64,000 bases of DNA from an uncultured delta proteobacterium (GTDB lineage: Bacteria; Desulfobacterota; Binatia; Binatales; Binataceae). The stretch spans positions 96,001 to 160,000 of the forward strand of contig CAVXXK010000004.1 of the NCBI GenBank assembly GCA_963765675.1, given 5' to 3'. Below the pieces are notes generated by a model that worked only from the letters and a program-made list of their open reading frames with translations, made no database searches and was not told where the DNA came from. The first letter of the stretch is position 1. Every line of letters begins with the position of its first letter. The position numbers and the translations under genes were made by a program. Below, one piece after another: positions 29,936 to 59,452 of the stretch.

Positions 29936-29967
29936 TGTACTTTCTCCGAATAGCCACAATGCACTCG

Positions 29968-30752: not shown

Positions 30753-30791
30753 CGCTCACCTCGCTTGTCGTTGGCGGCCCTGTCGAGCGCC

Positions 30792-31310: not shown

Positions 31311-31322
31311 CCGCCGATACTC

Positions 31323-32861: not shown

Positions 32862-32902
32862 GTCCTGTTACCTCGCGCGGGGACGCTGCCCCGCGAATTC
32901 AA

Positions 32903-33724: not shown

Positions 33725-33727
33725 CGC

Positions 33728-34162: not shown

Positions 34163-34200
34163 GCCCGGATACCTCTGCTTGATGCGTTCGCGTTTGAGCG

Positions 34201-34238
34201 CCCCCGCAGGCTCGGCGCGAGGCCAAGACCTGCGGGGG
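34201..34238 (-). terminator. GC-rich hairpin after the capsid gene (attenuator or stabiliser)
   Basis: CCCCCGCAGG ... CCTGCGGGGG 10-bp stem; no clear U-tract. Confidence 0.4.
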
Positions 34239-34316
34239 TCATGGACGAAGCCAGCGCGGCGGGAGGAGGAATCACCGCGCGGGCGCAGGGAGAATATGCA
34301 GTCAATCGCGTCATGA

Positions 34317-35264
34317 TTACGCCAGATACTCGCTGACGATCAGGTCCGCGCTGTTGCGCCAGATGTTGGTAGTCGCGACGCTTGCGCTTGCGCCGGTGCC
34401 GGCCATGAATTCGGAATTGAGTAATTGGCGAGCGACTTCTTCGAGCGACGGCGGGACGACCAGGAACACTCCTGCGCGGCCCGAGAGCGCTCCGAACGGC
34501 GCGCCGCCGTCGGTGGTGAACGATCGCATCGCGGCCCGGACCGCGCCGTAGTTGGCGGGATTACTCAGATCGGTATTGCTGGCGTATGCGAGCTGCCACA
34601 GCCCGACGCCGGTGTTCGCGCGTCCATCAACACCGTAGCGGAACTCGCGCCGGTTGAAGACCGCTTCGTCCGTCATCGCGCTCATCCGTGTGACCGCGTA
34701 TTCGCGGCGCAGCTGGAAGATAAACGGACGAATCGCGCGCGACGCGTCGACCAGGAACCAGTAATCTCCGGTGCCCGAGGTGTTGATATTGGCCGCCGTG
34801 GTACCGCCCGACTGATTGAGTAGTCCCACGGGATGCGCTGCGGAAAAGAACGGCTGACCGTCATAGCCAGTCACGGCACTGGGAGTAGCCACCGCGGTTT
34901 TGAGCATCGAGAACAGCAGCATGTCGGGATGCATCTTGGTGTCCCAGCCGAGCTGCTCGATGATCGGCTCATAGACGCCGTAGGTATCGTCCTCGATATC
35001 GTTGCGATCGATCGCGACCGTGTCTTCAAAGTTGCGGTTCACGATCGTGTAGGTATGCGCTTCGAGCGCCTGGACGACGCGGTCGCCGAGCCATTCGCGA
35101 AACCTGGTCGTGCGGCCGAGCCACGGATAGGTGGTCTGGCGCGAGCCGGAACGCACCACGCTCGCGATTTGCTCGTAGTAGGAGGGCGGCTTCTCGAATC
35201 CGCGCTGAAAGACCACGTCGAAGCCGGTGAACAATGCGGTCAGATTGGCGGCGCTGATTTCCAT
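34317..35264 (-). CDS. Mu gpT-like major capsid protein
   Basis: YPWLG..REWLGDR..NRNFEDTVAIDRNDIEDD..YDGQPFF..LVVPPSLE. Confidence 0.92.
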   Translation of the reverse strand: MEISAANLTALFTGFDVVFQRGFEKPPSYYEQIASVVRSGSRQTTYPWLGRTTRFREWLGDRVVQALEAHTYTIVNRNFEDTVAIDRNDIEDDTYGVYEPIIEQLGWDTKMHPDMLLFSMLKTAVATPSAVTGYDGQPFFSAAHPVGLLNQSGGTTAANINTSGTGDYWFLVDASRAIRPFIFQLRREYAVTRMSAMTDEAVFNRREFRYGVDGRANTGVGLWQLAYASNTDLSNPANYGAVRAAMRSFTTDGGAPFGALSGRAGVFLVVPPSLEEVARQLLNSEFMAGTGASASVATTNIWRNSADLIVSEYLA

Positions 35265-35295
35265 GATTGCAATTCCTCTTGCGGCTGACGCTCGG

Positions 35296-35778
35296 TTACG
35301 CGGCGGCGGACGCCTGATGCCAGAAATCGACCCACACCTGCCCGCTCGGATCGAGCGCGACCACTTCGCCCGCGGCGGCGTATTGCTGCACGCTCGCGCC
35401 GCTTGCGCGGTCGGTGGCGGTGAGGGTGTGATCGTCGAGCGCGAAGCAGATCGCGCCCAGGTCCGCGATCGTGATCGAGTTGTCCTGGTCGTAGAGGAAC
35501 ACGCCCTTGCGCGCCTTAACCGAGATCGCGCCGGCCGTGCCGGGATTGTTGATCGCGTTCTCTCCGGGAATCCCGTTTACGACGTTCTCGGCGCGTCCGA
35601 CGATCTTGAGCGCGTTGGCGGTCGTAGTGGTGGCCGATGCCGGCACCGCGTAGCCATTGGCGTCGATCGCGAGCATCCCGCCCAGGTACACGTTGGTGTT
35701 CGCTTCGACGCCGAACACGCGCATCCGGCCGTCGTCGGAAAGCTCGGGCGTGTTGCGTGAATTAGTCAATCCAGCCAT
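35296..35778 (-). CDS. Putative capsid decoration/cement protein
   Basis: Between protease and capsid; GYAVPA..G.AE..KGVF..DDHT..VWV. Confidence 0.65.
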   Translation of the reverse strand: MAGLTNSRNTPELSDDGRMRVFGVEANTNVYLGGMLAIDANGYAVPASATTTTANALKIVGRAENVVNGIPGENAINNPGTAGAISVKARKGVFLYDQDNSITIADLGAICFALDDHTLTATDRASGASVQQYAAAGEVVALDPSGQVWVDFWHQASAAA

Positions 35779-35799
35779 GTCTGCACATGCTCCTTGCTG

Positions 35800-36942
35800 T
35801 TAGCGGTCGCCGCCGGGCGAAAGCAGGCTCAGGAAATCCGCGCGTCCGTTTTTGCGCCGGACGAAATCGGCCGCGCTGACGCCCAGTTGCGAGCAGATCG
35901 CGAGCTCGGTCGCGCCGAGCGAGGTGCGTGCCCCGGATGCTCCTGGGGCCATCGGGGGCTCGTTGTCGAAGCCCGATGCCGCACCCAGAATCGCGGGCTG
36001 GCGCGCGACGAAGGAGCTGAAGCCGGCGGGATCGGCGGCGCAGTAGGCTATAGCCCATTCGCGCTGCGCCGGGACGAGCTTGCCGGCGCGCGTCGCTTCG
36101 TCAACCGCCTGCGCGGCGCGGTCGCGCGCGCGTTCCGCGCGCATCGCATTGAGCTCGGTGAGCGCCTTCTGGAACTCCGCGATCGCGACGAAGCGCGCGG
36201 GGTCGAGCACGCGGGTGTTGGCCGCCGCCGCGTCGCCGCCCGCGCCGCTGTCGTCATTGCCGTCGTTGTCATCGTTGTCCCCGGCGAGATCGCGCACGGC
36301 GGCAAGCACCTGCTCAGGCGCCGCGCCGGGATCAAGGCCCAGGATCTCCCGCAGCTTGTTCAGGAACTCTTCCATCATGCTTTCCTCTGGGCTCGCGGCG
36401 TGGGTTGCCGCCGCGGCGATTGCGGTCAGGTAAAGATTTGGATTGTTGGTCAATCCCGCGCGCAGCAGCCGAGTCACGCGGCCGCTTGCCGGATCGAACT
36501 GGAACACCGGCGAGACGTAGCGATACTCGCGCGCGGCGATCGCGGCCGCCGCGCGCGCGGTCCATTCGACGCGGCCCCATACGGCGCCTGCGCGGACCGC
36601 AAACTCGACAATCCATCCGGCTGCGGGCGCAGGCCGTCCCGCGGGAGCGCCGAAGTCGGTCGCGTGGTCGTAGTCGATCGGCAGCCCGGCAGCCATCGCC
36701 AATGCGCGAGACGCAGCAATCACGTCCGCGGCATCTTCGACCCGGAACGGGCCGCGGCCGTCGCGGCCGTTGAAGACTCCCGCCGGCAGAAGCTCGATCC
36801 AGTCGGGCGCCACTGCGTCCTGCCCGCCCGGATTCGCGGGAGCGGCGGGCGCGCCGGCGGTATCGACCGCGGAAGGACGGTTCAGTTTGCCTGCGTCCAA
36901 TCTGCGGTCACCACCGGCGCGTGTCTGGAGGTGTTTGCCCAT
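35800..36942 (-). CDS. Mu gpI-like prohead protease (with internal scaffold)
   Basis: WIELLPAG, GRDGRGP, PIDYDH, YRYVSPVF and AGLTNNPNL motifs. Confidence 0.92.
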   Translation of the reverse strand: MGKHLQTRAGGDRRLDAGKLNRPSAVDTAGAPAAPANPGGQDAVAPDWIELLPAGVFNGRDGRGPFRVEDAADVIAASRALAMAAGLPIDYDHATDFGAPAGRPAPAAGWIVEFAVRAGAVWGRVEWTARAAAAIAAREYRYVSPVFQFDPASGRVTRLLRAGLTNNPNLYLTAIAAAATHAASPEESMMEEFLNKLREILGLDPGAAPEQVLAAVRDLAGDNDDNDGNDDSGAGGDAAAANTRVLDPARFVAIAEFQKALTELNAMRAERARDRAAQAVDEATRAGKLVPAQREWAIAYCAADPAGFSSFVARQPAILGAASGFDNEPPMAPGASGARTSLGATELAICSQLGVSAADFVRRKNGRADFLSLLSPGGDR

Positions 36943-36994: not shown

Positions 36995-37335
36995 CCATGA
37001 ACAAATCTGGCAAAAACCCGAACGACTGTTAGGGAGAAAAACGAGCGGCTGAAAAAGCCCGCAAAAACGGCGAAGCCGTTGTGGCAGTGGGACTTCCCGA
37101 AGGATGATGGAGCGCCTTTTTCGAGGTGCGCGCGTGCGACCTGGCCAAAATGGACGTGTCAAAATCCTACTTACAAAACCGGTTTTTCGGCATTGCGCCG
37201 GCGTGCAGACGACGCTTCGCGTCGCCCGACGAGCCGTCGGCATCCACTGGCAGAAGCGGGCTCAGAGCCAGTAGGACCGCCGGCCGCGGGGGATGCCCGG
37301 ATGGCTCGATCTGTGTAGTCTGCGGTTCGATCGCG

Positions 37336-38143
37336 ATGAAAAAATCTGATCCGATAATTGAAGTTTCGGGGCTGGTAATCGAGCGCGAGGCCGCGATCCT
37401 GCGCGGTATCGACTGGCGCGTCGACCGCGGGCAGAACTGGGCGATCCTGGGCGCCAATGGCTCGGGAAAAACCTCGATGCTCCGCGCGCTGACCGGATAC
37501 CTGCCGCCGACGCGCGGAACGATCCGCGTCCTGGTCGAGACCTTCGGCCGCTCCGACTGGCGCGAGCTGCGCACCCGGATCGGGATGGTCAGCTCATCGA
37601 TCCAGCAGCTCATGCCGGAGAACGAAACCGCGCTCGACGCCGTGCTCTCAGGCAAATTCGCGATGATCGGCTATTGGGGCGACGCCGCGCCGCGCGACCG
37701 CCGCGCCGCCGCCACGATTCTGCGCCGGGTCGAGGCGCACGCGCTCGCAGAGCGCCCGTGGGGCTATCTGTCGCAGGGTGAGCGCCAGCGCGTGCTGATC
37801 GGGCGCGCGCTGATGGCCGCGCCGCGGCTCCTGATCCTCGACGAACCGTGCGCGGGCCTCGATCCGGTCGCACGCGAGCATTTCCTGCAATTCATCGAGC
37901 GGATGGCGCGGCAGGCGCGCGGCGCCCGCGATGATTCTGGTGACGCATCATGTCGAAGAGATCACGCCCGCATTCTCGCACGTGCTCGTGCTGCGCAAGG
38001 GGCGCGTGCTCGCCGCCGGTCCGCGCGCGCGAGTGCTCAACTCGAAGACGCTGTCCGCGGCCTTCGGCGCTCCGGTGCACCTCGTGCGCAAGGGCCCGCG
38101 CTACGCGCTGACGGTGCATCGCACGGCCTCTCATGTGATGTAG
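37336..38143 (+). CDS. ABC ATP-binding protein (ModF-like), +1 frameshift near 37920
   Basis: GANGSGKT, LSQGE and LILDEP; ILVTHHVEEI continues in the +1 frame. Confidence 0.82.
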
Positions 38144-38242
38144 CTGGATCGCGAAAAGCGAAGGCCCGGATTGCTCCCAGGCCTTTCGCCGTTTCAGTGC
38201 GAATCCGGATCAATCCCGGTGATAAACGCTTAGACCGCCGTG

Positions 38243-41128
38243 TCACTTCCCGATTCCCGACAGTTCGACCGATCGGGGCGAACCTTCGGCGTTGTCGGAA
38301 ATCGCGATCGAGGCCTCGACGCGGCCCGCCGACTGTGGCGCGAAGGTCACGTCGATCGAGCAATTCGCTCCGGCAGCGAGCACTCGGGGGCACTGATTTG
38401 CGACCGTGAAAGGAGCCGGCGCCGGGTCAACGCTTTCGATTATCACCGCGACTGAGTGCTTCGACTTTTTGTTGATCACCTTCACTTGTCTGACGCGTGC
38501 AACGCCGAGCTTGACCTTCCCAAAATTCACGCGCAGCGGTTTGATCGTGATTCGCTCCGCGACGGCCGTCGGCGTCGCGGTCGGTGTCGTGGTGGCGGTG
38601 TCCGTCGGGGAGGCGGTCGCGGTCGGCGTCGGCGATACGGTCGCAGTCGCGATGGGAGTGGCGGATAGGGTCGCCGACGGGGTCGGCGTGAATGTCGGCG
38701 TCGCGGTCACGGTCGGCGTCGGCGAGGACGGTGGGTCCGGATACATCAGGACCCGATTATTCCCGCTGTCGGCGACGTAGAGATTGTCGGCGCTGTCGAG
38801 GGCGAGCGCGCCCGGCGCCCAGAGGCTATCGGGACCCAGGCCGTCGAGATCATCCGGCGCGGCGCCCTGGTTGGAGCCAATCGCGCTCATCGAGCTCTGT
38901 CCGAACACCGCGATCGCGGCGGGCGCGGCAGGATATGGCGGAGCAAACTCGAGCACGCGGCTGTTGCCGGAATCGACGATATACAGATTGCCACGAGGGT
39001 CGAGCGCGACCGCCGCAGGCGCGTCCAACGTCGAGGCCGACGCACCTCCGGCATTTGCGATACTCGAGGTAAAACTGCCGTTTTGCCCAAACACGACGCT
39101 CGCTTGAGGCGCGGCCGAAAAAGGCGCCGTGAACTCGAGCGCGCGATTGTTTTCCATGTCGGCGATAAACAGATCGCCCGCGATGTCGGCCGCGACCGCG
39201 CCGGGAGCGCATAGCGTGAGCGCCGTGCTCAAGCCTCCGCCGTTGCATTGATTAGTGGTGAAATTGCCGCTCTGTCCGAACACGCGTATCGCAGCAGGCG
39301 CCGCGACGAATGGCGGTGGGAATTCGAGCACGCGCGAGTTACCGCTATCCGAGATAAACAAGTCGCCAGCGCGATCGAACGCGACCGCGGAGGGACCGAG
39401 CAGCGACGACGCGCTCACCGACCCGGGAGGAGTGCACGCGCTCGCCTCGAAGCTGCCGCAGGTGCCGAAGACCCTGATTGCTGGAGCCGAATCGACGCAC
39501 GGATAAGGACCGCAGGCCGCCGCCGGCGCCGCGAACTCGAGCACGCGGTTGTTGCCTGAATCCGCGACGAACAGGTTGCCGCTCGAGTCGGTCGCCGCGC
39601 CCTCCGGTGCGGAAAGGGTCGTATCACTTTCCGCCACGCCTGCGTTGGGCCTCGACGAAATGAAATCGCTCTGCCCAATCACGATATCGGCCGTACCGCT
39701 GGCAGGGGCCGACGGACCGATCCATCCCAGTACGCGATTATTCTTCGTGTCGGCGAGGTAGACCGCGGTCTGCGCGCCCGCGACTGCGATCGCGACGCCG
39801 CCGGGAGCGTCGAGTCCGGCGCCGTCGACACGATTTATCGCGCCGTGCGCAAAATCCGGTTGCCCGAGCTCGCCGCTCGCCGACGCGGTCGGGAACGAGC
39901 TTCCCTCGTTGAACTCGAGCACACGATTATTGCCGGTATCAGCCGCATAGAGATTGCCGGCGCCGTCGATCGCAAGGCCGCCCGGGCCGGACAGGCTCGT
40001 GGAACTCGGATTTTCTTCGCTCAGTCCGATGGTGAGGTTCGCCGTCGTGTTCGATAAGGTAACCGCCTTTTCGTAGATCAGGATCTCGTCACCTTGATTC
40101 CATCCGATATATAGATTCCCTGCGCCATCGACGGCGATCCCGGACGGTTCGCTCACGACCTCGGTGCCCGCGAAAACCAGATTTGCCGCGGTCGAGTTGC
40201 GCCCCTTCGCGCCGAAGGGTCCGGTGTATTCGAGCGCGCGGTCGTTTCCGGTGTCGGCGACGAACAGATCTCCGGTACCATCGAGCGCAAGCCCGACGCT
40301 GCCGAAGGGCGCGCCTCCGATGTCGAAGCATAGCGTGGACGCGGTCGCGCTCGAGCCCTGGTTGCAGGCCGCTCCGCTCGCGACGCTCTGCCCGAAAATA
40401 AGACTCGCCGCCGTGCTGATGGGTTGCGTTACGCGACCGCCCGAAAATGGCGTGAAGTAAACTGTCACGCGATTATCACCCGCATCGACGACGAACAGAT
40501 TGCCGGCGCTATCGAGCGCGAGACCCTCGGGCCGGCACAGCGTCGCCGCCGAGACCTGACCACTCGCGCATCCAGCGCTGGATTGAAAATTTCCGCCTTG
40601 ACCGAACACGGCTGCGGCCACTGCGCCGGCGATTGGAGTACCATTGAATCCCGCGAGCGGGGCGCCGAACACCGTCACCCGATTATTCCCGCTGTCGGCG
40701 ACGTAGAGATTGCCCGAGCGATCCACGCCAACTCCTGCAGGAGCCGAGAGCGTGCCCGCGCCCGGCGCACCGCCCTGATTTGGCGCCGACGACAGGAAGT
40801 CAGGTTGCCCGATCACGATATCCGCCGCCGCTCCGCTGACGAATCCGCCCGCATCGTCCCATCCGAGCACGCGGTTGTTCGCGGTATCAGCGACCCAGAC
40901 GTGATTGGGCGAGGCGGAGGTATCGATCGCGACCGCGCTCGGCGCCGCCATCCCGGTGCCATCGACAAAGTTGGGTGCGTTTTTGTAGAAATCAGCCTGG
41001 CCGAAAACCAGGCTCGCGACCTGCTGATCGCCGGCAATCGCGACAAGCGCGGCCATCGCGCCCGCAGCGATCACCGCCGCGAAGGCATAGCAGGATCTGC
41101 GCCGGACGATAGTCCGCGCACTTGCCAT
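38243..41128 (-). CDS. Secreted NHL-repeat protein with Pro/Thr linker and C-terminal Ig-like domain
   Basis: Many GNLYVADSGNNRV repeats; PTPTAT linker; C-terminal CSIDVTFAP..ISDNA. Confidence 0.85.
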   Translation of the reverse strand: MASARTIVRRRSCYAFAAVIAAGAMAALVAIAGDQQVASLVFGQADFYKNAPNFVDGTGMAAPSAVAIDTSASPNHVWVADTANNRVLGWDDAGGFVSGAAADIVIGQPDFLSSAPNQGGAPGAGTLSAPAGVGVDRSGNLYVADSGNNRVTVFGAPLAGFNGTPIAGAVAAAVFGQGGNFQSSAGCASGQVSAATLCRPEGLALDSAGNLFVVDAGDNRVTVYFTPFSGGRVTQPISTAASLIFGQSVASGAACNQGSSATASTLCFDIGGAPFGSVGLALDGTGDLFVADTGNDRALEYTGPFGAKGRNSTAANLVFAGTEVVSEPSGIAVDGAGNLYIGWNQGDEILIYEKAVTLSNTTANLTIGLSEENPSSTSLSGPGGLAIDGAGNLYAADTGNNRVLEFNEGSSFPTASASGELGQPDFAHGAINRVDGAGLDAPGGVAIAVAGAQTAVYLADTKNNRVLGWIGPSAPASGTADIVIGQSDFISSRPNAGVAESDTTLSAPEGAATDSSGNLFVADSGNNRVLEFAAPAAACGPYPCVDSAPAIRVFGTCGSFEASACTPPGSVSASSLLGPSAVAFDRAGDLFISDSGNSRVLEFPPPFVAAPAAIRVFGQSGNFTTNQCNGGGLSTALTLCAPGAVAADIAGDLFIADMENNRALEFTAPFSAAPQASVVFGQNGSFTSSIANAGGASASTLDAPAAVALDPRGNLYIVDSGNSRVLEFAPPYPAAPAAIAVFGQSSMSAIGSNQGAAPDDLDGLGPDSLWAPGALALDSADNLYVADSGNNRVLMYPDPPSSPTPTVTATPTFTPTPSATLSATPIATATVSPTPTATASPTDTATTTPTATPTAVAERITIKPLRVNFGKVKLGVARVRQVKVINKKSKHSVAVIIESVDPAPAPFTVANQCPRVLAAGANCSIDVTFAPQSAGRVEASIAISDNAEGSPRSVELSGIGK

Positions 41129-41405
41129 CGCGCCCCCCTTTTTTGATCTCGCGCCTGACCGCTAGCTGGCCAACCAGCGCGACATCGCCCGTATAAGCGC
41201 ATTATGAACAAAATTCTGGTGAATTAGAATAGGAGCGTGTGCCGATCCCCCGGCCCGCGCTGGATCACGACAGACCATGCTCCCGCTTGATTTGTCTCCC
41301 AGATTACGTAATCTGCCGTCTCTCTTTTGTGGCTTTAACGACTTGGCGGCGCGATGCTACAGTGCGCCTAACTATTGATTCGGCGCTCGAAAGGAGACCG
41401 CAAAC

Positions 41406-42068
41406 ATGAGCATCAAGGAGCGACTTGGCATCTTCGCGACGGTAACCGCCGCCGCGATGATCGGTGGTGCTGTCGGTGGATATCTGATGAACGCGGCGAC
41501 GCTTGACGCCGCCGGCACGCCGAAATCGATGACGGCGCGCAAATTCGTCCTGGTCGACGACGCCGGCCGCACCCGCGGCGAACTCGGCGTCAACCCGCAA
41601 GGCGTCGCGCAGCTCGCGCTCTTCGACGACCAGCATCACATCCGCGCCGGCATCGGCGTCGCACACAACGGCGCACCCGGCCTTGCGATCTACAGCCCGA
41701 CCGGCCAGACCCGGATCGAGCTGGCTCTGTCGAACCATACCTCGCGGCTGCGCTTCTTCAATCCCGACGGCCGAACGGTTGCGGGCTTTGGCGCGACCTC
41801 GGCCGGCCAGCCCGGATTGGTGCTCGAGGATAATCAGGGCCGCACCCGCGCCTCGATCGAGGTCGCGTCCGATGGCTCGCCGACGCTGAGGCTCGGTGAC
41901 GCCAATGGCTCGCGCATCGGACTCGACGTGACTCCGGACGGACTGCCGGGGCTCGCGCTGCTCGGCACCAACGGCGTCACGCGCGCGACGCTGACGCTCA
42001 ACGCCGACGGAGCTGGCGCCCTGACCGTGTTCGATTCGTCGGGCAAAGCGGTAGGCGGCGGCGAATAA
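41406..42068 (+). CDS. Membrane-anchored beta-repeat protein
   Basis: AAGGAG RBS; N-terminal TM; about eight 22-23-aa LxLxDxxGxxR repeats. Confidence 0.7.
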   Translation: MSIKERLGIFATVTAAAMIGGAVGGYLMNAATLDAAGTPKSMTARKFVLVDDAGRTRGELGVNPQGVAQLALFDDQHHIRAGIGVAHNGAPGLAIYSPTGQTRIELALSNHTSRLRFFNPDGRTVAGFGATSAGQPGLVLEDNQGRTRASIEVASDGSPTLRLGDANGSRIGLDVTPDGLPGLALLGTNGVTRATLTLNADGAGALTVFDSSGKAVGGGE

Positions 42069-42142
42069 GTCGGCGGACGGAAATAAACAACGCAGATGGT
42101 TGGGCGGCGTTTGCGGTTCTGAAAGCGACCGCTCTTCAGATG

Positions 42143-42218
42143 CCCTCTCCCTCCGGGAGAGGGAAAGCGGCGCGATGCTTGCGTTTCTTTCGCAAGCATC
42201 GTGACGCGCGGATGAGGG
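42143..42218 (+). repeat. REP-like repeat, family A (long form)
   Basis: Same architecture as the 6403 copy. Confidence 0.85.
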
Positions 42219-42284
42219 CGCGCAGGATGCACAAATCACGACTGAGTAATGCTGCTCCGAGACTGACTAATGCGGAACTAACTA

Positions 42285-42767
42285 ATGAATGACGCCCCAC
42301 TCCATCGCCGTGCCGCCCGCTCCGCAGCCGTCTTCGCGCTTGCGCTGGCGCTCGGCGGATGCGCCGCGCTCTCGCAATCCGACAAGCCAACACCCCAGCA
42401 GCGTTCGCAACAGCTCGAGCCGATGCTGGCCGCCGCGGGCTTTGCGATGCTGCCCGCCGATACGCCGCAGCGCCAGGAGCAGCTCTCCACGCTGCCACCG
42501 CTGACCGTGTCCTACTACGTCGGCCGCAAGGGTAAGCTGCACTACTGGATGGCGGATCCGCAGTATTGCAAATGCCTCTACCTCGGCACCGAAGAGAACT
42601 ACCAGAAATACGAGCAGATGCGCCTGCAGCAGAAATGGCAGCGCAAGGAAAACGAGGACGCGCGCGAAAACCTCGAGGCCAGCCAGGAAGAACAGATGGA
42701 ATTGCAGACCGAGATGTTCAATCCTTACGGCGGAATGGGATGGATCGGTCCCGGAATGTACTATTGA
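42285..42767 (+). CDS. Hypothetical lipoprotein
   Basis: LGGC lipobox; LAAAGF..ADPQYCKCLYLG. Confidence 0.7.
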   Translation: MNDAPLHRRAARSAAVFALALALGGCAALSQSDKPTPQQRSQQLEPMLAAAGFAMLPADTPQRQEQLSTLPPLTVSYYVGRKGKLHYWMADPQYCKCLYLGTEENYQKYEQMRLQQKWQRKENEDARENLEASQEEQMELQTEMFNPYGGMGWIGPGMYY

Positions 42768-42791
42768 TCGGGCGGGCGATTTATATCCGCG

Positions 42792-43592
42792 ATGCGCTTC
42801 GACAGATTCATCCAGCGATGCCACTCCGAATGGCCGGAGTTCGGCGATCCTCGCCTCCTCGAGAAGTCGCGCAATCCCGCCACGCGCGACCTTTCCGAGG
42901 TCCTGTCGCGCGTGCCCGGGATGGCGACCGAGAACAAGCTCAAGCTGCTCAATCTCGCCGTCGCCTCGCTCGGCGACAGCGAGGTGTATGTCGAGGTCGG
43001 ATGCTACAAAGGCGCGAGCCTGGTCGGCGCGGCGACCGGAAATCCCGACGCGCGGATATACGCGTGCGATAACTTCTCCCAGTTCGACGGCGCCGCCGAA
43101 GCGCTCGAAGGAGTGCTGGCGCAATTCACGCAGCCGGGCCAGGTCGAGTTCCGCGATCTCGATTTCCGCAAGTTCATGACCGAAGCGCCGTGGCGGCCGG
43201 CGAAAATCGGCGCCTATTTCTACGACGGCGGCCATTCCTTCGAGGATCAGTACGACGGACTTCGCCTCGCAATACCGCATCTGGCCGATGACGCAATAGT
43301 CATTATCGACGATACCAACAAACGCGCCGCCCGTTCCGCCGACGCACTAATCGCGCGCCAGGTGCCCGGCTTCGAATTGATACTCAATCTGCGCACGCCG
43401 GGAAATCATCATCCAACCTGGTGGAACGGCATCCAGGTCTATCGTTACCGCGCCCAGGGCCCAGTTGATTCGGCAGCGCTCGCCGGAGCGTCCTTTTCCG
43501 CGCGCAAACTGATCTACGACGACCTGTTTCTGAATTTGAAACATCGTCGCCGCGCCTTGCGTACGAAGCTCAAGCAATCATTCAAGCCGTGA
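42792..43592 (+). CDS. Class I SAM-dependent methyltransferase (Methyltransf_24-like)
   Basis: YVEVGCYKGAS, YDGGHSFE and IIDD motifs. Confidence 0.8.
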   Translation: MRFDRFIQRCHSEWPEFGDPRLLEKSRNPATRDLSEVLSRVPGMATENKLKLLNLAVASLGDSEVYVEVGCYKGASLVGAATGNPDARIYACDNFSQFDGAAEALEGVLAQFTQPGQVEFRDLDFRKFMTEAPWRPAKIGAYFYDGGHSFEDQYDGLRLAIPHLADDAIVIIDDTNKRAARSADALIARQVPGFELILNLRTPGNHHPTWWNGIQVYRYRAQGPVDSAALAGASFSARKLIYDDLFLNLKHRRRALRTKLKQSFKP

Positions 43593-43634: not shown

Positions 43635-45018
43635 TTAATTCGAGCTCCGCTCTCCCGAACGCGCGGGACTGAGTATTGCGTCGCCGGCTGCCGCCTCAGG
43701 CAGACCCAGCTTGTCGAGCACCGCTTTTTGCGAGACGCGCAGACCGCGATCCGCCATCGCCCCGACGATATCGGCGAACTCCTTGGCGTCCTGATCGTCC
43801 GGCAGTCCCAGCACCAGCTTTGGGTATTGGCGCATCGGACCGAGATTCAGATCGACGATCGGCCGTACCAGGTCGCGACCGAGCGTCTCGCCCAGCCGGC
43901 GCGCATCCGCCACCAAAATATCGCGCCGCACCGCGTCGTGAACCTCGGCCGCCGCGCGCGATCCGCCCGACGACGACATCTCAGTCGTCAGCGTCTGGCC
44001 AAGCACCGCCTTCGAGACCTGCGCGTCCAGGTACTCGCAGAACGAGCGGTAGAGCTCCGAGCTTCCGCCCTGCCGCGCTTCGGTGAATTCGATCATCATC
44101 GACTCGGGGATTATCGCAGCCGCGTCGGTGCCGATATTCGCGACCGCCCGCAAGAGCGTCTGCTTGTCGATCTCAGTCGCGCCCGGATGATACTTGCCGA
44201 CTCGCAGCGGCTGCCCGAAGACTTCCGTGAACGTCACCCAGTCTTTCAGTATGTAGTTCTTGAACAGGTACGACCATCCCGCCGCGCGCGCGAGTCCGCC
44301 GCGAATCGGCAGACCGGCCTTCGCCTTCGAGAAGTGAGTAATGAACTTGAACGGAGCCAGCGGCGCCGTCATCGGCTGGATTCCGTCGCGCAGACTACCC
44401 GCCAGTCCGCCACCTGCGAAGTGCGGTGTCTTTCCGCCGTCGCTCGATGTCGTTGTCGCCGACGCACTGGTCATGGTCTGCTCTTTCAGCGTGCGGACCA
44501 GCAGCTCGTTGCCGGAAATCCAGTCGAACATGAACCAGCGCGGGTCGCGCCACTTGAGTTCGCGCGGAAACCATTCGCGTCCAGAGCGATCCCAGATTAT
44601 TTCGGTCGCTGAGAAACCTTTCCCGATCGCGTCGAGGATATCCACCAGCGCCGAATCGATCGACAGCGCTCCTCCGAGCAGGAGCTCGCGAATCATCGCG
44701 GCCGCGCGCTGATCCTCGGCCGAAGACGACGCTGCGCGCACGATCAGCTCGAGGCCAGCGACCGCCTGCTTGCGCGTGCCGAGCACCGCCAGGTAGTGCA
44801 GGTCCTTTTCTTCCATCTCCTCGGCGAGTTCGAGATAGAGAAACGGATCACCGAACTCCGCCTCGCGCAGAATTGACGCGAGCCGCTCCGGGCGTGAGCC
44901 CGACCGACGGATGCATCACGGAGAAGATATTGCGGATTCCCGCCATCGTCGGCGCCGCCTGTTCCGAGCGCAGGCTCTCGGTCTCGACCTCGCGCCCATA
45001 CGCGTCGTAAAGCTTCAT
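43635..45018 (-). CDS. Mu gp29-like portal (DUF935), +1 frameshift near 44891
   Basis: GLTP[ERLASILREAE]..EEMEEKDLHY, FGQPLRVGKY and SKAVLGQTLT; N-terminus MKLYDAYG is in the adjacent frame. Confidence 0.88.
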
Positions 45019-45231
45019 GAGGCCGCCTCCTGATGTTTGCGGTCGGATTCACCTACTTTGCGGAACCATCCAGCGCCGCAAAGATGGCACGGCTCGGGCA
45101 GCCGCATAGTGGTAAGCAAAAACTGATACCCACAAGCTTCGCACCGCCATTCCCAATAAATACTCATTCAACCCTCAGTCGATTATATTAATTAACTAAT
45201 CACTCAAATTAGCTAATAGCTTCTGCCGATA

Positions 45232-45309
45232 CCCTCTCCCTCCGGGAGAGGGCAAGCGGCGCGATGCTTGCGATTCTTTTTCGCAAGCATCGTGACGCGC
45301 GGGTGAGGG
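45232..45309 (+). repeat. REP-like repeat, family A, between terminase and portal
   Basis: Near-identical to the 42143 copy. Confidence 0.85.
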
Positions 45310-45334
45310 CGTGGGCGCTGCTCTGCAATCTCCT

Positions 45335-46801
45335 TCACCAAGCCCCCTCCCCAAACCGAACCGGCGCAGCCCCGCGCACCGGCGTATAGGCAATCTCCGC
45401 CACCTCCATTCGCGAGGCCGCGAACGCGAGCGCCGCCGCGACCGCGGAGTCTCCATGCCGCGGCATCCCGTCCGAGCCGCGAGCGCGCGCGTCGCCGACC
45501 TTCGCGATTCCCTGCTCGACCACGATCGCGCGATGGTCGGCCAGAATATCGGCGTCGCGCGGCAGCTCGATCGCGCCGTCCTCGAACGCCGCCTTGTAGC
45601 GCGGCATATTCTCGCGGTACCACTCGGCCGAGAGCATCACCTGCGCGATCCGCGCTCCGTAGCGCTGCGCCGCGGTCTCGGCGAGGTACTGGCCGTTACC
45701 CCGCGCGTCCATCGCGCCGGCGATAAACCTCGGCAGACGGTCTGCCAGGTAGAATAGAATCTGTTCCTGCTGCCGAAACGGAAGATTGCGCAGCTCCACC
45801 ACCATCGCGGTTCGGCGAGTAAGGTCCGGCGCAATCTGCATCACCCAGATTACAGTCAGATCGCCCGAGCGTCCGAAATCCTCGCCGAAGCAAGTTGCCG
45901 ACGCGCTGTCGAGCGCTCCCAGAGCCGACGCGAGACGATCTTCGCACCACGCCTCGGTCTCCGAGCACCGAACCTCCTCCGGCTTGAACGCAAAATCGTC
46001 GGCGACCGACCATCGGAGCACCGGAATTCCCTCGCGCATCCGCGATTCGATCGCAAGCGCACTCAGGAACGTTCCCGCCGACGCGCGCGGGATGCACATC
46101 AGCTCCTCGCCGGCATTGTCGGCGTAGAGCTCGAAGATCTCGCGCCGCCAGTCCGCCTCGCCCTCGGGCGACCATTCGCGCCCCAGCGTCTCGCAGATCT
46201 TTCGGTACAGTCCCTGCGCGAGCGCGTCGTCGAGGGTCACGCGATGGATCGAATACGGCAGGCGTCCGGCGCGGACGTCGCACACGAGCTGATTGAACGC
46301 GTTGGCGGCGCCGTTGTGGGTCGAGATGATCCGCACCAGCCCACCCCACATCGTAAACGCGAGCGCGGCTTTCAAAAGGCCCGCCAGATCATCGTGAAAG
46401 GCGGCCTCGTCGATCACGGCGCAGCCCTGCTTGCCGCGCAGATTCGACGGACGCGACGACAGCGCGACGATCTTGTGCCCCGACGCGAAGCGAATCCGGT
46501 AGGCAAGGATGTCGCGCGCTTCGTCGGTGACGGCGATCTCCTCGATCGCGCGCGCCGCCTTGTCGAATCGCCGCGCCCACATCGCGGCCGTCTCGACGAA
46601 TTCGAGCGCCATGTCCTTGTTGTAGCCGATGTACCAGCCGTCCATCCCGCCGCGTCCCGCGACTGCGGCGCCGAGCGCGCGATCGGCGGCCTCGGTCCAG
46701 GTGAGCCCGATACGCCGCGACTTCTCGGCGACTTTCACCTGCGCGCGATCGGCAATCCATCGCCGCTGATAGGGCAGGAGAATCGACAATCCATCGTTCA
46801 T
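45335..46801 (-). CDS. Mu gp28-like terminase large subunit
   Basis: LLPYQRRW, EKSRRIGLTW, VIDEAAFH, ISTHNG, GEDFGRSGD, DARGNG and HGDSA motifs. Confidence 0.92.
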   Translation of the reverse strand: MNDGLSILLPYQRRWIADRAQVKVAEKSRRIGLTWTEAADRALGAAVAGRGGMDGWYIGYNKDMALEFVETAAMWARRFDKAARAIEEIAVTDEARDILAYRIRFASGHKIVALSSRPSNLRGKQGCAVIDEAAFHDDLAGLLKAALAFTMWGGLVRIISTHNGAANAFNQLVCDVRAGRLPYSIHRVTLDDALAQGLYRKICETLGREWSPEGEADWRREIFELYADNAGEELMCIPRASAGTFLSALAIESRMREGIPVLRWSVADDFAFKPEEVRCSETEAWCEDRLASALGALDSASATCFGEDFGRSGDLTVIWVMQIAPDLTRRTAMVVELRNLPFRQQEQILFYLADRLPRFIAGAMDARGNGQYLAETAAQRYGARIAQVMLSAEWYRENMPRYKAAFEDGAIELPRDADILADHRAIVVEQGIAKVGDARARGSDGMPRHGDSAVAAALAFAASRMEVAEIAYTPVRGAAPVRFGEGAW

Positions 46802-46812
46802 TTCAGTCTCCA

Positions 46813-47837
46813 TCAAAATTCCGTGCGCTCTCTGAACGCGCCCACTTGCCGCATCATCTCGTAGAGTCTCTCGGCGTGCTCTTCGAGCGCCTGCGCGACC
46901 GCGCGCGAGATCCCGCTCTCGCCGGGAGCAGTGGCTCCGGGAGGCAGATTGACCGTGATCGACGGCGACGAGTTGATCGTGATCGGCGCGGCCACGTTCG
47001 CGCTTCGGTTCCTGCCGGACGCACCAAAATCTCGCACTCGCTCGCGCGACGAATTTGCGAGGTCCGCGCGCAACGAGAATTCGTCAGCGGAAGGCGGTGC
47101 GCGCAAGCTTGCGAGCACGCGACGGATTCGCGCTGGCAGCATCGCGATCGCGCTGGCGGTTTCGCGGGTGCGCGTCGCGCCGCGATATCGCGCACCAGGC
47201 TCGATGGCTTCAGAAGCCATCGCAGGGTCTCAGATTGCCGGTCGGCCGCGATTGTACGGCGCGCGACGCCGCTCGCCGTCAGTACCGCGGCGAGATTGAG
47301 CGCTCGCGGCGCGGACGATATGTCGGGTTCGGAGATTGCGCTGCCGCCCGCTGCGCGGCCGCTCTGCTGCGAATCGGATTGCAGGTTCGCGCGCAACGTG
47401 AGTTGCCGCACGCGAGCGACCGCGATATTGCCTGCACGCACAGCGGCGAGCGCGCGCGTCATCGCCGCTCGCGGCGAGGGCGATCGGCGCTCCGGGCTTT
47501 CACCCTCTGAGCGAGTGCGATCACTTTGCCCTGCGACGATCGGTGCGTGCTGCGCGCGTCCGGCCGCGAGAACCGATGCCAGAGGCCGAGCGCTGCGCAG
47601 CATCGAGGTGACGCCGCGCTCTTGCGGACCTATCGCCTCAGCGGCTGAAGCGGCGCTTTGCGAGGACTTTGCGCGCGCGGGAACTTCGAGCGCATGCAGC
47701 ACTTCGGCAAGCGCATTCGTGCGTGCGCGAACAGATGCGCCCACGCGCGCGAAGGCCGCCAGGATATTCGCGGTCCGCGCGAACGACGCGATCCGTTCCT
47801 CGACGCTCGGGCGGTGCGGATTCAGACCTTCATTCAT
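46813..47837 (-). CDS. Ala/Arg-rich gene or gene pair with tape-measure-like C-terminus; frame change near 47230
   Basis: GAGGAG RBS at the 47837 ATG; C-terminus ITINSSPSITVN..QALEEHAERLYEMMRQ..RERTEF. Confidence 0.5.
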
Positions 47838-47870: not shown

Positions 47871-48341
47871 TCAGAGCTTGATTTCGAGCAGCGCGCTGCG
47901 AATCTTCTCGGCCGCGTCCGGCGTGAGCCCGGATTCGCGCGCTTCCTCGACTCGCGCCGCCGCCGCGTCAACGCCGGCGTTCACGCGCGATCCGGCCTCG
48001 ACGCGCCATCGTTCCGTCTCGATCCCCTGCTTGCTCACCGCACAGATGGTTCTGGCGATCGCGTGGATATCAGGCGAATTTGTTCCTTTACGCTTCGCGT
48101 TGAGCATCTTCTGCATGATCGTGAACAGATGCGTTTGCACCATCCGAGCTAGTGCGCGCTCCATCGTTTCATCGTCGCCTGCGGTTTCCTCGGCGATCAC
48201 GCGCGCCTCTGCGATCGAGAGCCGCACTGCTTCGAGTTGTTCCGCGAAATCTTTTGAATCGTCGTGAGATTTCGCTTCGGCCCCTTTCTCTTTGCCGGCC
48301 CTTTTTTTCTCGTGATTCTCGTCCGTGCTGTTTTTAGCCAT
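47871..48341 (-). CDS. Mu gp27-like (DUF3486) small-terminase candidate, N-terminally reduced
   Basis: ARVIAE..DD..MVQTHLF and GLTPDAAEKIRSALL motifs; position upstream of large terminase. Confidence 0.72.
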   Translation of the reverse strand: MAKNSTDENHEKKRAGKEKGAEAKSHDDSKDFAEQLEAVRLSIAEARVIAEETAGDDETMERALARMVQTHLFTIMQKMLNAKRKGTNSPDIHAIARTICAVSKQGIETERWRVEAGSRVNAGVDAAAARVEEARESGLTPDAAEKIRSALLEIKL

Positions 48342-48347
48342 CGCCGA

Positions 48348-48662
48348 TTACCAGTACTTGCGCGGACGGGCGACGCCGGCCGGCGCCGCCTGGTTGTACT
48401 CGACCATGTCGACGCCGCGCGCGGTGAGCCGAGCGAACCAGGTGCCGGTGTCCTGGCCCTCGAGCTCGATCAGATCGAGGTCGGCGAGGTAGCTTAGCTC
48501 GCGGCGAACCGCGTTGAGTGAAAACGGCAGCCGGATATCGATCAACACGCGCCAGATGATCTGTTCCGACACCACGCTTGGACGTCCGGCATCCACCACC
48601 CGCAAAATCCGCCAGCGGGCTTCCTCGCGCTGCTTTTGTTCGAGGTCGATTGCATCAGCCAT
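48348..48662 (-). CDS. Mu gp26-like winged-helix protein
   Basis: RWRIL..VRRELSYL..ARLTARGVDMVEY..GVARP. Confidence 0.78.
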   Translation of the reverse strand: MADAIDLEQKQREEARWRILRVVDAGRPSVVSEQIIWRVLIDIRLPFSLNAVRRELSYLADLDLIELEGQDTGTWFARLTARGVDMVEYNQAAPAGVARPRKYW

Positions 48663-48948
48663 AGAGTCTTTCCTTCAGAGTCGCGATTTCCTGGCGCATC
48701 TCTTCGCGCATGGCGTCGAGCTTCGCGTCGAGCGTGGCGCTGAACCTGATCCAGTCCTCGCGCCTGACGTATTCGAGCGGGAGAGACGCGCGCAGTTCGT
48801 AAAGTCCGCGCTCAATTTCGCTCCAGCGGGCCGAGTCGCGCAGCACGGCTTGCTGATGGCGCTCGAGAATCCAGCGCACCGTGCCCACGTTCAGGCCCGC
48901 CAGGGTTAATCCCGCGGTCAGGAAGGCCGCCACCGCGTCCCAGCTCAC
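48655..48948 (-). CDS. Mu-like membrane/coiled-coil protein (gp25 position)
   Basis: N-terminal TM; LPLEYVRREDW..KLD. Confidence 0.7.
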   Translation of the reverse strand: MSWDAVAAFLTAGLTLAGLNVGTVRWILERHQQAVLRDSARWSEIERGLYELRASLPLEYVRREDWIRFSATLDAKLDAMREEMRQEIATLKERLYG

Positions 48949-50351: not shown

Positions 50352-50915
50352 TTATTCGTAGGCTCGATTGAGCCATCCGGCCAGAAATTCCTGGTCGCCG
50401 TCCGGACCCGCGTCGCGCGCGAACGCAGCCATCACGCGGTAGTAACCGGCGGCTTCCGAGCGCGTCGCCGCCATCAGGGCCAGAGGCTCGGCCGCGTGCG
50501 CGGCGGCAGCGGTTTCCGGTCCGAGGACGTTGTCTTCAGTCACGCGGCGGCCGACCGCGCGCAGCGCTCGCTGCAGGCATCCGATCGCATGGGCCGGCCC
50601 GATATTTACCGCCAGATCGAAAATCTTGGCGGCGATCGCGCCGGGCGCCGCGTCGAAACCGAACGGACGCCAGTAGTCGCGATAGTAAATCGCGATCGCG
50701 TCGGCACGGGTCAGATTCGCGATGTCGAGCGTCGGGTACTCGCGCGCGGAAATTCCAAAGCGGGTGATTCCGCCCGGATCGTCGGGTGCGGTTTCGATGC
50801 CGCCCTCGTCGCCAAGGACGCGGTTTACCGCGGCGACAAACTCGGGCGAATAGGATTCGGTCAGCGATTCCGGGAGGCCAGATGCGTCGTCCACTGCAAG
50901 ACTCACTGCGGGCAA
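50352..50915 (-). CDS. Endolysin, glycoside hydrolase family 108
   Basis: EGG..PDDPGGITRFGI, IYYRDYW, FDLAVNIG and FLAGWLNR motifs. Confidence 0.9.
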   Translation of the reverse strand: MPAVSLAVDDASGLPESLTESYSPEFVAAVNRVLGDEGGIETAPDDPGGITRFGISAREYPTLDIANLTRADAIAIYYRDYWRPFGFDAAPGAIAAKIFDLAVNIGPAHAIGCLQRALRAVGRRVTEDNVLGPETAAAAHAAEPLALMAATRSEAAGYYRVMAAFARDAGPDGDQEFLAGWLNRAYE

Positions 50916-50958: not shown

Positions 50959-51002
50959 AGTTTAGCGCAAACGCAAAAGTTTCGTAAGGCCGAGCAGTTC
51001 AG
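50959..51002 (-). promoter_or_regulatory. Putative activator-dependent late promoter (lysis/packaging operon)
   Basis: CTGAACTGCTCGGCCTTA-N20-TAAACT; matches the motif at 36951-36994. Confidence 0.7.
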
Positions 51003-51364
51003 ACCGGTTTTTTGCCCGATAATACTTTATAGACATACCTCTCCGTGCAGCCTAATGTTCTCGCGATTCTGGACACGCTGACGCCCGCTGTGCGTAGCGC
51101 AATTATCTGCGCGCGGCGCAGCACGCGGTCGGGATGAGCCGGAATCATCACGCGGTCGCCGCCAAACGAACGCGCAAGCCGCGCGGCCGCGCCGATTCCG
51201 ATCGATCGCGTGATCTGATCACTCGACGAAACTTTGTTCGGAATATAAACCCGCCGTCCGCCGAAATCGCGCGCCAGATGCGACGTCGCCTTCATCCCGA
51301 TCACCCGCGTGATATCCCTAATCAGCGACTCGCGGCTCAGGATGTAGCCCTCATGCGCGGGCAC
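50999..51364 (-). CDS. Mor/C family transcription activator
   Basis: Two IG..A..LAR.FGG..V.IP motifs plus C-terminal HTH (VSRIARTLGCTERYVYKVL); start uncertain. Confidence 0.8.
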   Translation of the reverse strand: MPAHEGYILSRESLIRDITRVIGMKATSHLARDFGGRRVYIPNKVSSSDQITRSIGIGAAARLARSFGGDRVMIPAHPDRVLRRAQIIALRTAGVSVSRIARTLGCTERYVYKVLSGKKPV

Positions 51365-51417
51365 GCGAGCAACGCGGGCAAGTAGCTGGAACAGCCTGCT
51401 ACTATGTCCGGCGGCTC

Positions 51418-51642
51418 TCACAGGCTGTACGCGGCGCGCAGATTCGGCGGGATCGAACCGATCCCACGATCGCGATCGTACACCACGCGCCATTTGAGCT
51501 CCGCGACTTCGGCGATGCACAGGGGACAGAGACCGCGACGCCTCGTCGCGACACCGTACCGCACTGGCGCGCGGCACCACAGGCACTTGGTCATCCGGTC
51601 CGCGGACCGGACGTGGCGGCCGCGATGGTCCTGCTGGAGCAT
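51418..51642 (-). CDS. Small putative zinc-finger protein
   Basis: CLWC-x15-CPLC; lies between repressor and activator. Confidence 0.5.
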   Translation of the reverse strand: MLQQDHRGRHVRSADRMTKCLWCRAPVRYGVATRRRGLCPLCIAEVAELKWRVVYDRDRGIGSIPPNLRAAYSL

Positions 51643-51860
51643 GTGGACTTCCAGACGGCATTCGCCGCGAGGCTCGGACGTGAAGGCGGCCGTGCGAAAG
51701 AACTTCGGACTCCGCGAACATCAGCGGCAGGTCGAGCGAGTCGATGCAGGGGAAGGGTTGTGGATAATCGGCGGGCGCATCCAATCCAAAGCTTGCTTTG
51801 CCTGTCATCCCCATGCCAAAAACAGCTATTCCACAGATGGTGGATATTAGTCAACACAAA

Positions 51861-52526
51861 GTGTTTACACACGAAGACGCCGAATTCCGATCCCGCCTGG
51901 CCCAGGTGCTGGCCAAGTTCGGTTCGGTGGCCGCGCTGGCGCGCGCGATCGGCGTGTCCAACAACGCGATTTACAAGTGGCTGCAGGGGGACGGACAGCC
52001 AAATCTGTCCAACCTGGTGGGGCTTTCGCGCGCGGCCCGCGTCTCGGTCGAATGGCTCGCGACCGGGCGCGGCGCGGCCGCGCGCAGAGGGGCGGCGGCG
52101 CCGCGCGCGCTCGGAGAAGGATACACGTTCATGCCGCGTTTCGACGCTCGAGGCGGCGCGCGCGGCAAGCAAGGACTGATGAACGATCAGATCGTGGACA
52201 GTCTGGCGCTCAGCAGCGAATGGGTGCGAACGCGGCTGCATGCCGAGCCGCGCAATCTGCTGCTGCTCGAGATCGCGGGCGACACGATGGCGCCGACGCT
52301 GAACGCGACCGACCTCGCGATAGTGGATTTGGGAGAGCCGCGCTTTCGGCGCGACGCGATTTACGTGCTGCGCCATGCGGACGAGCTTGCGGTGCGCAGG
52401 TTGCAGCGCCGTCCCGACGGCAAGTTGATCATCAAGTGCGACAATCCAGCATACGAGCCGGTAGTAGCGGCGCCCGAGACGATCGCGATCATCGGCAACG
52501 TGATCTGGTCAGGCACGCGCCGGTAG
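51861..52526 (+). CDS. CI/LexA-like repressor (HTH + S24 domain with substituted catalytic dyad)
   Basis: ALARAIGVSNNAIYKW..VSVEWLATG; GDTMAPTL, AVRRLQ and DNPAY; start may be up to 63 nt upstream. Confidence 0.88.
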   Translation: MFTHEDAEFRSRLAQVLAKFGSVAALARAIGVSNNAIYKWLQGDGQPNLSNLVGLSRAARVSVEWLATGRGAAARRGAAAPRALGEGYTFMPRFDARGGARGKQGLMNDQIVDSLALSSEWVRTRLHAEPRNLLLLEIAGDTMAPTLNATDLAIVDLGEPRFRRDAIYVLRHADELAVRRLQRRPDGKLIIKCDNPAYEPVVAAPETIAIIGNVIWSGTRR

Positions 52527-52800
52527 AGCGCAGAGCAGTCCACTCTTCGCACTGTGCCACAAGGGTTTCGTGCTCGTACGCCGAAAGTCAGTCAACACCG
52601 CGAGCCGACCTCTCCCTTGATCCCTCTCCTTGGACAAGGAGAGGGTATCTCAGCGCTCAGGAAGGTTATGCAAAGGTCTCCTCCGGGAGAGGGTATATCC
52701 GAGCCTTCCACGCGGAAGGCGGACAGAGAGTGTCGATTTCAGAAAACCTCTCGTTCGGCAAAGTACGACTGGCACGCTGACGGCGCGACGGCTCCGAAAA

Positions 52801-52971
52801 CCCTCTCCCGCCGGGAGAGGGCAAGCGGCGCGGCGATTGCTTCTTTCAGCAATCGCCGTGACGCGCGGGTGAGGGCGGCCTTGCTCCATCGCGGATCCTC
52901 TTTAATCGCGCGTCGCTGCGCGCCGCGCTGACTAAGGTCCCTCACCTAACCTCTCCCTTTCAGGGCGAGGG
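52801..52971. repeat. Family A long copy (52801-52875) plus inverted variant (52939-52971)
   Basis: Match the copies at 6403 and 15487; degenerate fragments also at about 52620-52695. Confidence 0.8.
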
Positions 52972-59288: not shown

Positions 59289-59377
59289 TCGGAATTCGTG
59301 GGGATTATTGGATCGAGAGAAACGCATTGCTGGAAATTTTTTCATGCTCGGATGGATCGTGGGATTGTAGTCGTGCG

Positions 59378-59452
59378 CCCTCACCCGCGCGTCACGACGC
59401 TTGCGAGAAAAACGCAAGCCTCGCGCCGCTTCACCCTCTCCCGGTGGGAGAG
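59378..59452 (-). repeat. REP-like repeat, family A (long form, inverted)
   Basis: Reverse complement of the 42143-type copy. Confidence 0.8.

Follow-up and report, generated by a model that had tools for sequence, protein, structure and literature searches.

One of the closest described systems is gp1, the small terminase of the gene transfer agent (GTA) RcGTA. According to the available text of Sherlock et al. (2019; PMC6854486), this protein has no N-terminal DNA-binding domain and is essential for gene transfer. Its DNA binding is weak and without evident specificity, it contacts the large terminase (TerL) through its C-terminus, and its role was established by deletion, two-hybrid and gel-shift experiments. 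Loss of the DNA-binding region is proposed there as a mark of GTA-type terminases (PMC6854486).

The terminase described here belongs to a different family, that of gp27 of phage Mu. The Mu pac site lies at Mu's left end. The helical core of small terminases forms a ring and contacts the large terminase. To our knowledge, discussion of how GTAs switched to packaging any DNA has drawn chiefly on a single example, the small terminase of RcGTA. The locus comes from the Binatota, a widespread and uncultured phylum of soil and peat. Our literature searches found no report of a gene transfer agent in Binatia, and a search for Binatota together with prophage returned nothing related. By title, none of the matches for domesticated Mu-like elements as gene transfer agents dealt with this subject.

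A Gp27-family small terminase without its N-terminal helix-turn-helix

The window, that is the whole stretch of 64,000 nt analyzed here, encodes a small terminase (TerS) of 156 amino acids (aa) in the open reading frame (ORF) 47871-48341 on the minus strand. The ATG lies at 48341-48339 and the TAA of the upstream gp26-like gene at 48350-48348, which leaves a gap of exactly 6 nt. An in-frame stop is found two codons before the ATG and the stop-to-stop frame is 158 aa, so that no N-terminal extension is possible. The protein was divided as follows.

47871-48341, minus strand: small terminase of the Gp27 family without helix-turn-helix (HTH), 156 aa plus stop (PF11985, phrog_426; short orthologues 56-92% identical)
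48255-48341, minus strand: charged low-complexity N-terminal tail, residues 1-29, at the place that tail and HTH together take in long forms (pLDDT below 50 for residues 1-23; fast-evolving)
47874-48254, minus strand: helical core, residues 30-156, the presumed oligomerisation and TerL-contact part (four predicted helices; dN/dS 0.04-0.46)

The ORF matched PF11985 (Phage_Mu_Gp27) above the gathering cut-off, with 41.7 bits (cut-off 28) and an E-value of 2.1e-10. Residues 30-154 aligned only to HMM positions 49-172 of 173. Thus the full architecture of the family, in which HMM positions 1-48 are the HTH, was not found in this protein. The match to phrog_426 (terminase small subunit) covered profile positions 57-183 of 184. 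Mu gp27 (from NC_000929) spans PF11985 positions 1-173 and phrog_426 positions 1-183, and in six long relatives, which stem from viral contigs or other genera of the Binataceae, PF11985 is covered from HMM positions 1-4 to 170-172. Three further short forms from the window's genus begin at positions 45-50. What the long forms have in addition is a conserved segment (WKIKKLPPDLKEQLD..L..G...S..QL.KWL.DNGFEISHAAIHKYGQKF), and one long form matches HTH_32 with an E-value of 9e-6, a match that falls short of the HTH_32 cut-off.

The core matches PF11985 as that of Mu gp27 does, and the gene order of Mu is kept. The terminase stands where Mu-like phages have it, with a gp26-like gene (phrog_436) upstream and a TerL (phrog_2) and a portal (PF06074) downstream. 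Unlike in Mu, HMM positions 1-48 are missing, an orphan gene precedes the large terminase, and the element has no MuA.

Over 48254-48446, a stretch that covers both the terminase start codon and the upstream stop, the window was matched without any difference by contigs of run X2, which is an independent soil metagenome. Therefore, the HTH-less start is not an assembly artefact. The metagenome contigs compared derive from relatives, no run having contained more than 0.16 of the sampled words; no RNA run was among those listed. We conclude that ORF 47871-48341 is a real HTH-less variant of the known Mu Gp27 small terminase family.

The short and the long form were modelled with AlphaFold2. For the short form (alignment of 41 rows, mean pLDDT 78), residues 1-23 were disordered and were followed by helices at residues 23-52, 57-81, 92-136 and 141-155. 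The long form (alignment of 27 rows, mean pLDDT 68) had two additional helices ahead of the core, at residues 36-48 and 54-63, and the start of a third, within the helix at residues 70-100. Comparison of the models thus suggests that two helices were deleted together with the beginning of a third; this third one would be the recognition helix in an HTH of three helices. A Foldseek search of both models against the PDB gave no match at E <= 0.001 that would confirm the presumed ring-forming role. Weak TetR/homeodomain-like rows lay above this threshold and were not taken as evidence. We also considered the N-terminal tail as a strongly basic DNA clamp. This was rejected, as 8 K/R and 7 D/E residues were counted in residues 1-30.

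These results agree with the original prediction on several points. It had described a protein of 156 aa with the upstream gene 6 nt away and no room for an extension, which the coordinates and the in-frame stop bear out. It had also named an HTH-like 'S..S..hRY' segment as typical of the N-terminus of the family and absent here, and the extra segment of the long forms fits this motif. HMM coverage and structure prediction had been named as checks. On the HMM the start is missing, and in the model a disordered stretch leads directly into long helices without those of the HTH. In summary, the N-terminal HTH module of this small terminase is truly lost.

Distribution and origin of the short form

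A word-indexed protein search returned 26 proteins including the query. There were 21 short proteins of 109-181 aa, which were 56-92% identical to the query and from Candidatus Binataceae where named, and 4 long proteins of 205-239 aa. A Gp27 homologue was detected in 111 of the 165 family genomes, mostly as a single copy. We then surveyed 60 loci (30 from the family-genome search, 10 IMG/VR loci and 20 added) with a profile of 207 positions that was derived from alignment A3 and has its HTH at approximately positions 30-78. The match started at profile positions 68-73 in 8 loci, all from the window's genus, and at position 62 in genome G152, which belongs to the same genus. A 140-aa fragment in G085 started at position 97. 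The remaining 50 of the 60 loci started at or before position 35 and keep the HTH. For two of these 50 (L066 and L067, on G100:C41 and G084:C5), the contig also carries a MuA transposase gene at a distance of 3-6 kb, and we take these copies to be true Mu-like prophages. The extracted short forms measured 150-164 aa, against 190-273 aa for the long forms.

The form in G152 (L022, G152:C292, 1432-2085) is a second HTH-less variant of the genus, with a core only 36% identical. It carries an acidic, proline-rich C-terminal extension of 50 aa that overlaps the start of the next gene, and its gp26-like neighbour is 83% identical to that of the window.

A tblastn search with the 156-aa protein against 50,697 phage records gave no match at 1e-3. 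Therefore, a long form was used as query for the phage collection. It matched 46 phage records, and in 44 of them the alignment began at query residue 31 or earlier. The other two, which are one phage under two accessions, hold a full CDS of 191 aa. The original prediction would have failed on a similar truncation in active Mu-like phages. No truncated Gp27 was present among the 46 matched records, all of which keep the HTH. An exhaustive profile search of 1.84 billion representatives yielded 1416 proteins at E <= 0.001. Within the 150 best of them, the whole N-terminal module was missing only in P0017, P0020 (a 110-aa fragment) and P0060 (identical to the protein of G152), all from the window's lineage. 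In the same 150, P0065 begins inside the HTH and P0125 has an HTH with an insertion.

A different kind of variation was seen in some loci of genus g2. In L029, L032, L055, P0025 and P0026 the terminase tail ahead of the HTH contains in-frame inserts, which resemble translated repeat-like DNA (..SPSPFRRGE.., ..SSSPLQGEG..).

A tree was calculated from the core columns of the terminase with 48 rows, leaving out the partial L012, the fragment L063 and ten viral contigs. The eight HTH-less rows formed one side of a branch with an SH-aLRT of 82. The nearest branches to this group were those of the HTH-bearing genera g7 and g5, and the terminase clades track the host genus. G152 sat on a long branch (1.3), and its placement is less sure. 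Taken together, tree and survey indicate that the HTH was lost in a single event limited to the window's genus of Candidatus Binataceae.

Selection on the short form was estimated from seven complete sequences from seven species-level genomes (Nei-Gojobori). In all 21 pairs the dN/dS of the core was 0.04-0.46. The N-terminal tail had a dN of 0.09-1.37, compared to 0.014-0.23 for the core. Thus the core is under purifying selection, which argues that the truncated terminase was kept working through the radiation of the genus. In the long forms of genus g2 (11 sequences), the HTH had a median dN/dS of 0.25 (50 of 55 pairs); the core median was 0.18 and that of the tail 0.37.

Of the eight loci with a short form, L008 is from the unpublished genome G158, which contributes a row to alignments A2-A4 as well as to the dN/dS table and the tree. 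None of our conclusions depends on G158 alone. The unpublished genomes G018, G102, G162 and G164 entered only the genome tallies of Gp27 and MuA, and G018 is among the nine genomes with MuA.

A Mu-derived element at a fixed chromosomal site

The terminase is part of a Mu-like element that spans 21011-52526 of the window, with the late region on the minus strand and host genes adjoining both ends. Starting from the repressor, the order is S24 repressor (plus strand), Mor, GH108 endolysin, the proteins at the gp25 and gp26 positions, TerS, orphan gene, TerL, a zinc-ribbon ORF and the portal. Around the terminase this follows the Mu order gp25-gp26-gp27-gp28-gp29. A 6.5-kb block of non-phage genes comes next, and the remainder, as far as 21011, holds gpI, gpT, Gp37, sheath, baseplate and fibres. 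Besides the terminase, the following features were assigned.

51798-52526, plus strand: repressor with HTH and S24 peptidase, end of the element (PF00717 at 1.3e-17, PF01381 at 7.9e-8)
50999-51814, minus strand: Mor-family late activator (PF08765 at 8e-11; domain at residues 200-265 of the frame)
50352-50915, minus strand: endolysin with GH108 and peptidoglycan-binding domain (PF05838 at 2.2e-21, PF09374 at 1.8e-7)
48655-48948, minus strand: 97-aa protein at the Mu gp25 position (phrog_462 at 2.1e-15; gene order)
48348-48662, minus strand: Mu gp26-like protein, winged-helix candidate (phrog_436 at 3.1e-26; Mu gp26 in the same phrog at 7.3e-43)
46813-47837, minus strand: orphan gene 'gpX' between the two terminase genes, with a 1-nt deletion that splits it (single ORF in relatives)
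45335-46816, minus strand: large terminase (phrog_2 at 5.5e-31; 74-99% identical in relatives)
43635-45018, minus strand: Mu-type portal, frame broken by an extra C near 44892 (PF06074 at 8.4e-100)
37126-43592, no strand assigned: non-phage block with ABC ATPase, 961-aa NHL-repeat protein, two small proteins and a methyltransferase (Pfam)
21011-36942, minus strand: head and contractile-tail module with fibre, baseplate, sheath, Gp37, gpT major head and gpI protease/scaffold (Pfam)

The head and tail module matched PF21882, PF09684, PF04865, PF04717, PF06995, PF04984, PF09646, PF10124 (4.1e-96) and PF10123 (1.3e-77). Host ABC-transporter genes begin at 52973, beyond the end of the repressor. 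The non-phage block is kept at the same place in three other genomes (G160, G054 and G045), and it occupies the place of Mu gene 30 (F).

Some further details of the stretch were noted. The Mor and repressor frames overlap head to head by 17 nt. Since the Mor domain covers only residues 200-265, the true start of Mor is probably far downstream of that of the longest frame. A direct repeat of 84 nt (77% identical) links the sheath gene (32358-32441) and a Gp37-family gene (32969-33052). Another repeat of about 90 nt, MITE/REP-like and with two hairpins, has three copies assigned to the element, at 42133-42221, 45222-45309 and 52791-52875, and also occurs at 10426-10483, 6429-6478 and 59375-59431. 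Depth at 45229-45409 reached 218 in one metagenome run, which indicates that this repeat is multi-copy.

Two genes of the element are out of frame in this assembly. An extra C in a CCC run (approximately 44888-44893) breaks the portal, and a base is missing from the orphan gene near 47224-47235, where the excess of third-position substitutions changes frame near 47250. Both breaks lie in G/C runs of three. G160 and G159 have an intact portal frame, and the extra C is missing from each of the three metagenome contigs across the site (runs X2 and X3). In addition, G160 carries its own 1-nt indels, in sheath, Gp37 and further genes whose frames are open in the window. Taken together, these observations make consensus errors of the assembly the likelier cause of both breaks. 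If both breaks were real, the element would be dead in the window's strain.

The frame breaks bear on the question of whether the short terminase is a decaying remnant, in an element that no longer packages DNA in the window's genus. We regard this as quite improbable. The breaks would suit it if they were real; however, consensus errors are the likelier cause, and the neighbouring genes are open in relatives and 74-100% identical. The G152 copy, with its very long branch and its C-terminal extension of 50 aa, could likewise be read as decay, but its frame is open, as are those of all seven complete short forms. PF04233 (Mu F head protein) had no match in the genome, whose completeness is 95.6%, and this too would be consistent with a loss of function. 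Against decay, the core constraint described above holds in every one of the 21 pairs.

No transposition or integration gene was detected in the following scans. PF02914 (MuA DDE) was found neither in G000 nor in any of the ten other genomes of the window's genus. In the family it occurred in only 9 of 165 genomes, where it lay on other contigs or beside divergent second copies of Gp27. PF09299 (MuA C-terminal domain) gave no match, and control genomes gave none either, which makes this result uninformative. Among 43 frames scanned, chosen from 84 frames of at least 180 aa, there was no integrase-like Pfam match. At the repressor end, the place of a MuA-type transposase, the repressor adjoins the host ABC-transporter genes.

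Beside the tail-fibre end, one and the same set of five host genes is found in the window, in G159 of the same genus, in G054 (g5) and in G045 and G023 (both g2). For a phage with random insertion, a site shared by three genera points to inheritance from a common ancestor. In two genomes the element is split. On a single contig of G023 (G023:C1), the head and tail half is found at 3.96 Mb and the packaging half 1.25 Mb away, at 2.71 Mb, and in G159 the two halves are on different contigs (C1 and C2). The gpT gene has no stops in these split-locus genomes (85% identical in G023 and 97% in G159).

The same data speak to a further possibility, that of an ordinary small terminase in an active temperate phage with its replication and integration genes outside the examined region. 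The element does possess a full set of head and tail genes together with lysis genes, a Mor activator and a repressor, and IMG/VR records related stretches as viral contigs. Nevertheless, we consider an active phage very improbable. MuA DDE is missing from G000 and the ten other genomes of the genus, the scanned frames hold no integrase-like match and host genes adjoin both ends, and neither the flank shared by three genera nor the split loci fit random transposition.

Domestication fits better. The element presents a structural gene cluster with no transposition or integration gene found in the scans, a conserved site, purifying selection and dispersed loci that are intact, as would be expected for a GTA. 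The missing transposase, the vertical inheritance at a fixed site and the intact genes of split loci together argue for a GTA-like domesticated element. On these grounds it is probably a Mu-derived, domesticated, GTA-like element and a candidate new GTA lineage in Binataceae.

Long-form Gp27 proteins of other Binataceae genera (for example L048, L010 and L011) likewise follow a gp26-like gene, and their core is 35-47% identical to that of the window. In sister genera they belong to the same transposase-less element at the same chromosomal site. Unlike these, the window's terminase has no HTH of about 50 residues, which the sister genera keep under constraint. As the same element exists there with a constrained HTH, loss of the HTH did not make the element GTA-like. 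The loss was late and genus-specific, within an element that was already domesticated.

Proposed DNA packaging without the HTH

We propose that, in the ancestor of the window's genus, a single in-frame deletion removed the three-helix HTH of a Gp27-family TerS. What was left would be a disordered charged tail and the helical core, and this TerS would still be working. We infer that the HTH is the pac reader and that the core serves ring formation and TerL binding. A TerS ring without HTH would then still switch on the large terminase, but could not read a pac site. Packaging in the HTH-less genus would start regardless of sequence, as has been put forward for the small terminase of RcGTA. We consider non-specific packaging the most likely consequence of the HTH loss, with a probability slightly better than even. 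In favour are the loss itself, its single origin, the constraint on the core, the rarity of short forms and the hallmarks of domestication. Weighing against it, all genomes are metagenome-assembled and the element is known from its genes alone. By title, none of the literature matches listed reports an experiment showing that the Gp27 HTH reads pac.

The neighbouring genes offer another route. Site-specific packaging could have been kept if the gp26-like or the orphan protein recognizes the DNA, the short TerS being only an adaptor. The gp26-like gene precedes the terminase in 39 of 40 loci, and the 40th ends at a contig end. Across genera its protein is far better conserved, with 70-98% identity in 37 loci against 35-47% for TerS. 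One of the Atlas clusters nearest to it bears the name 'ArsR family transcriptional regulator' (score 0.97), and PadR is a weaker lead; these names are automatic labels. The orphan gene is a single ORF in relatives (348, 353 and 366 aa in G160, G159 and G054, respectively; range 348-369 aa including G152), and it is present in the HTH-less genus g1, including G152, and in g5. However, the gp26-like gene also occurs in all long-form loci and in Mu, and the orphan gene also in G054, which has a long TerS. Since both also accompany terminases that have an HTH, neither originated as a substitute for it. The gp26-like protein has no Pfam match, and the orphan protein has neither a Pfam nor a PHROG match. 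We rate a recognition role of these neighbours as unlikely.

The gp26-like gene was in addition considered as the split-off HTH of the terminase. This was ruled out, because it represents the family of Mu gp26 itself and is present beside full-length terminases. The orphan protein is rich in Ala, Arg and Ser, is about 350 aa long and has a conserved C-terminal motif (..ITINSSPSITVN..EEHAERLYE..).

Non-specific packaging is also what the comparison with RcGTA would suggest. The original prediction had cited the RcGTA small terminase as lacking its specificity region, which the available text of PMC6854486 confirms. Like RcGTA gp1 as described there, the window's terminase is helical, starts at the presumed coiled-coil part with no DNA-binding domain at its N-terminus, and belongs to a host-inherited element derived from a phage. 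The absence of this domain is evident from HMM coverage and from the AlphaFold2 model. As to a coiled-coil ring, four long helices were predicted in the monomer model, and Foldseek gave no significant fold match. In contrast to RcGTA gp1, for which deletion, two-hybrid and gel-shift experiments are described (PMC6854486), the window's terminase is known from sequence and predicted structure alone. A further difference is that the HTH-bearing ancestral state survives in sister genera of Binataceae, whereas the available text of PMC6854486 describes none for RcGTA. By this analogy, the window's terminase appears to be convergent with the RcGTA small terminase, in a different family. Convergence with GTAs had been claimed in the original prediction, and it stands insofar as the HTH is gone and the surroundings are GTA-like. 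It needs revision insofar as the loss does not define the element, since sister genera keep a constrained HTH. The sequence-independent packaging of host DNA proposed in that prediction would be the likely outcome, although the gp26-like neighbour could supply DNA binding.

Lateral transduction occurs in staphylococcal prophages. As a speculation to which we give a low probability, the Binataceae element may be an independent, Mu-derived GTA not previously described. The HTH-bearing genera would then start headful packaging at the element's own pac and run into the chromosome, in a manner similar to lateral transduction, and packaging in the HTH-less genus would be random.

Loss of the N-terminal DNA-binding module would thus have happened independently, in a terminase family apparently unrelated to that of RcGTA, and points to a possible GTA in Binatota. 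The orthologous HTH-bearing copies of the sister genera form matched protein pairs with the short forms and are a natural HTH-plus comparison group for packaging specificity. If the speculation on an independent, Mu-derived GTA is true, the HTH-bearing and HTH-less genera would be a living before-and-after pair for the indiscriminate packaging of GTAs.
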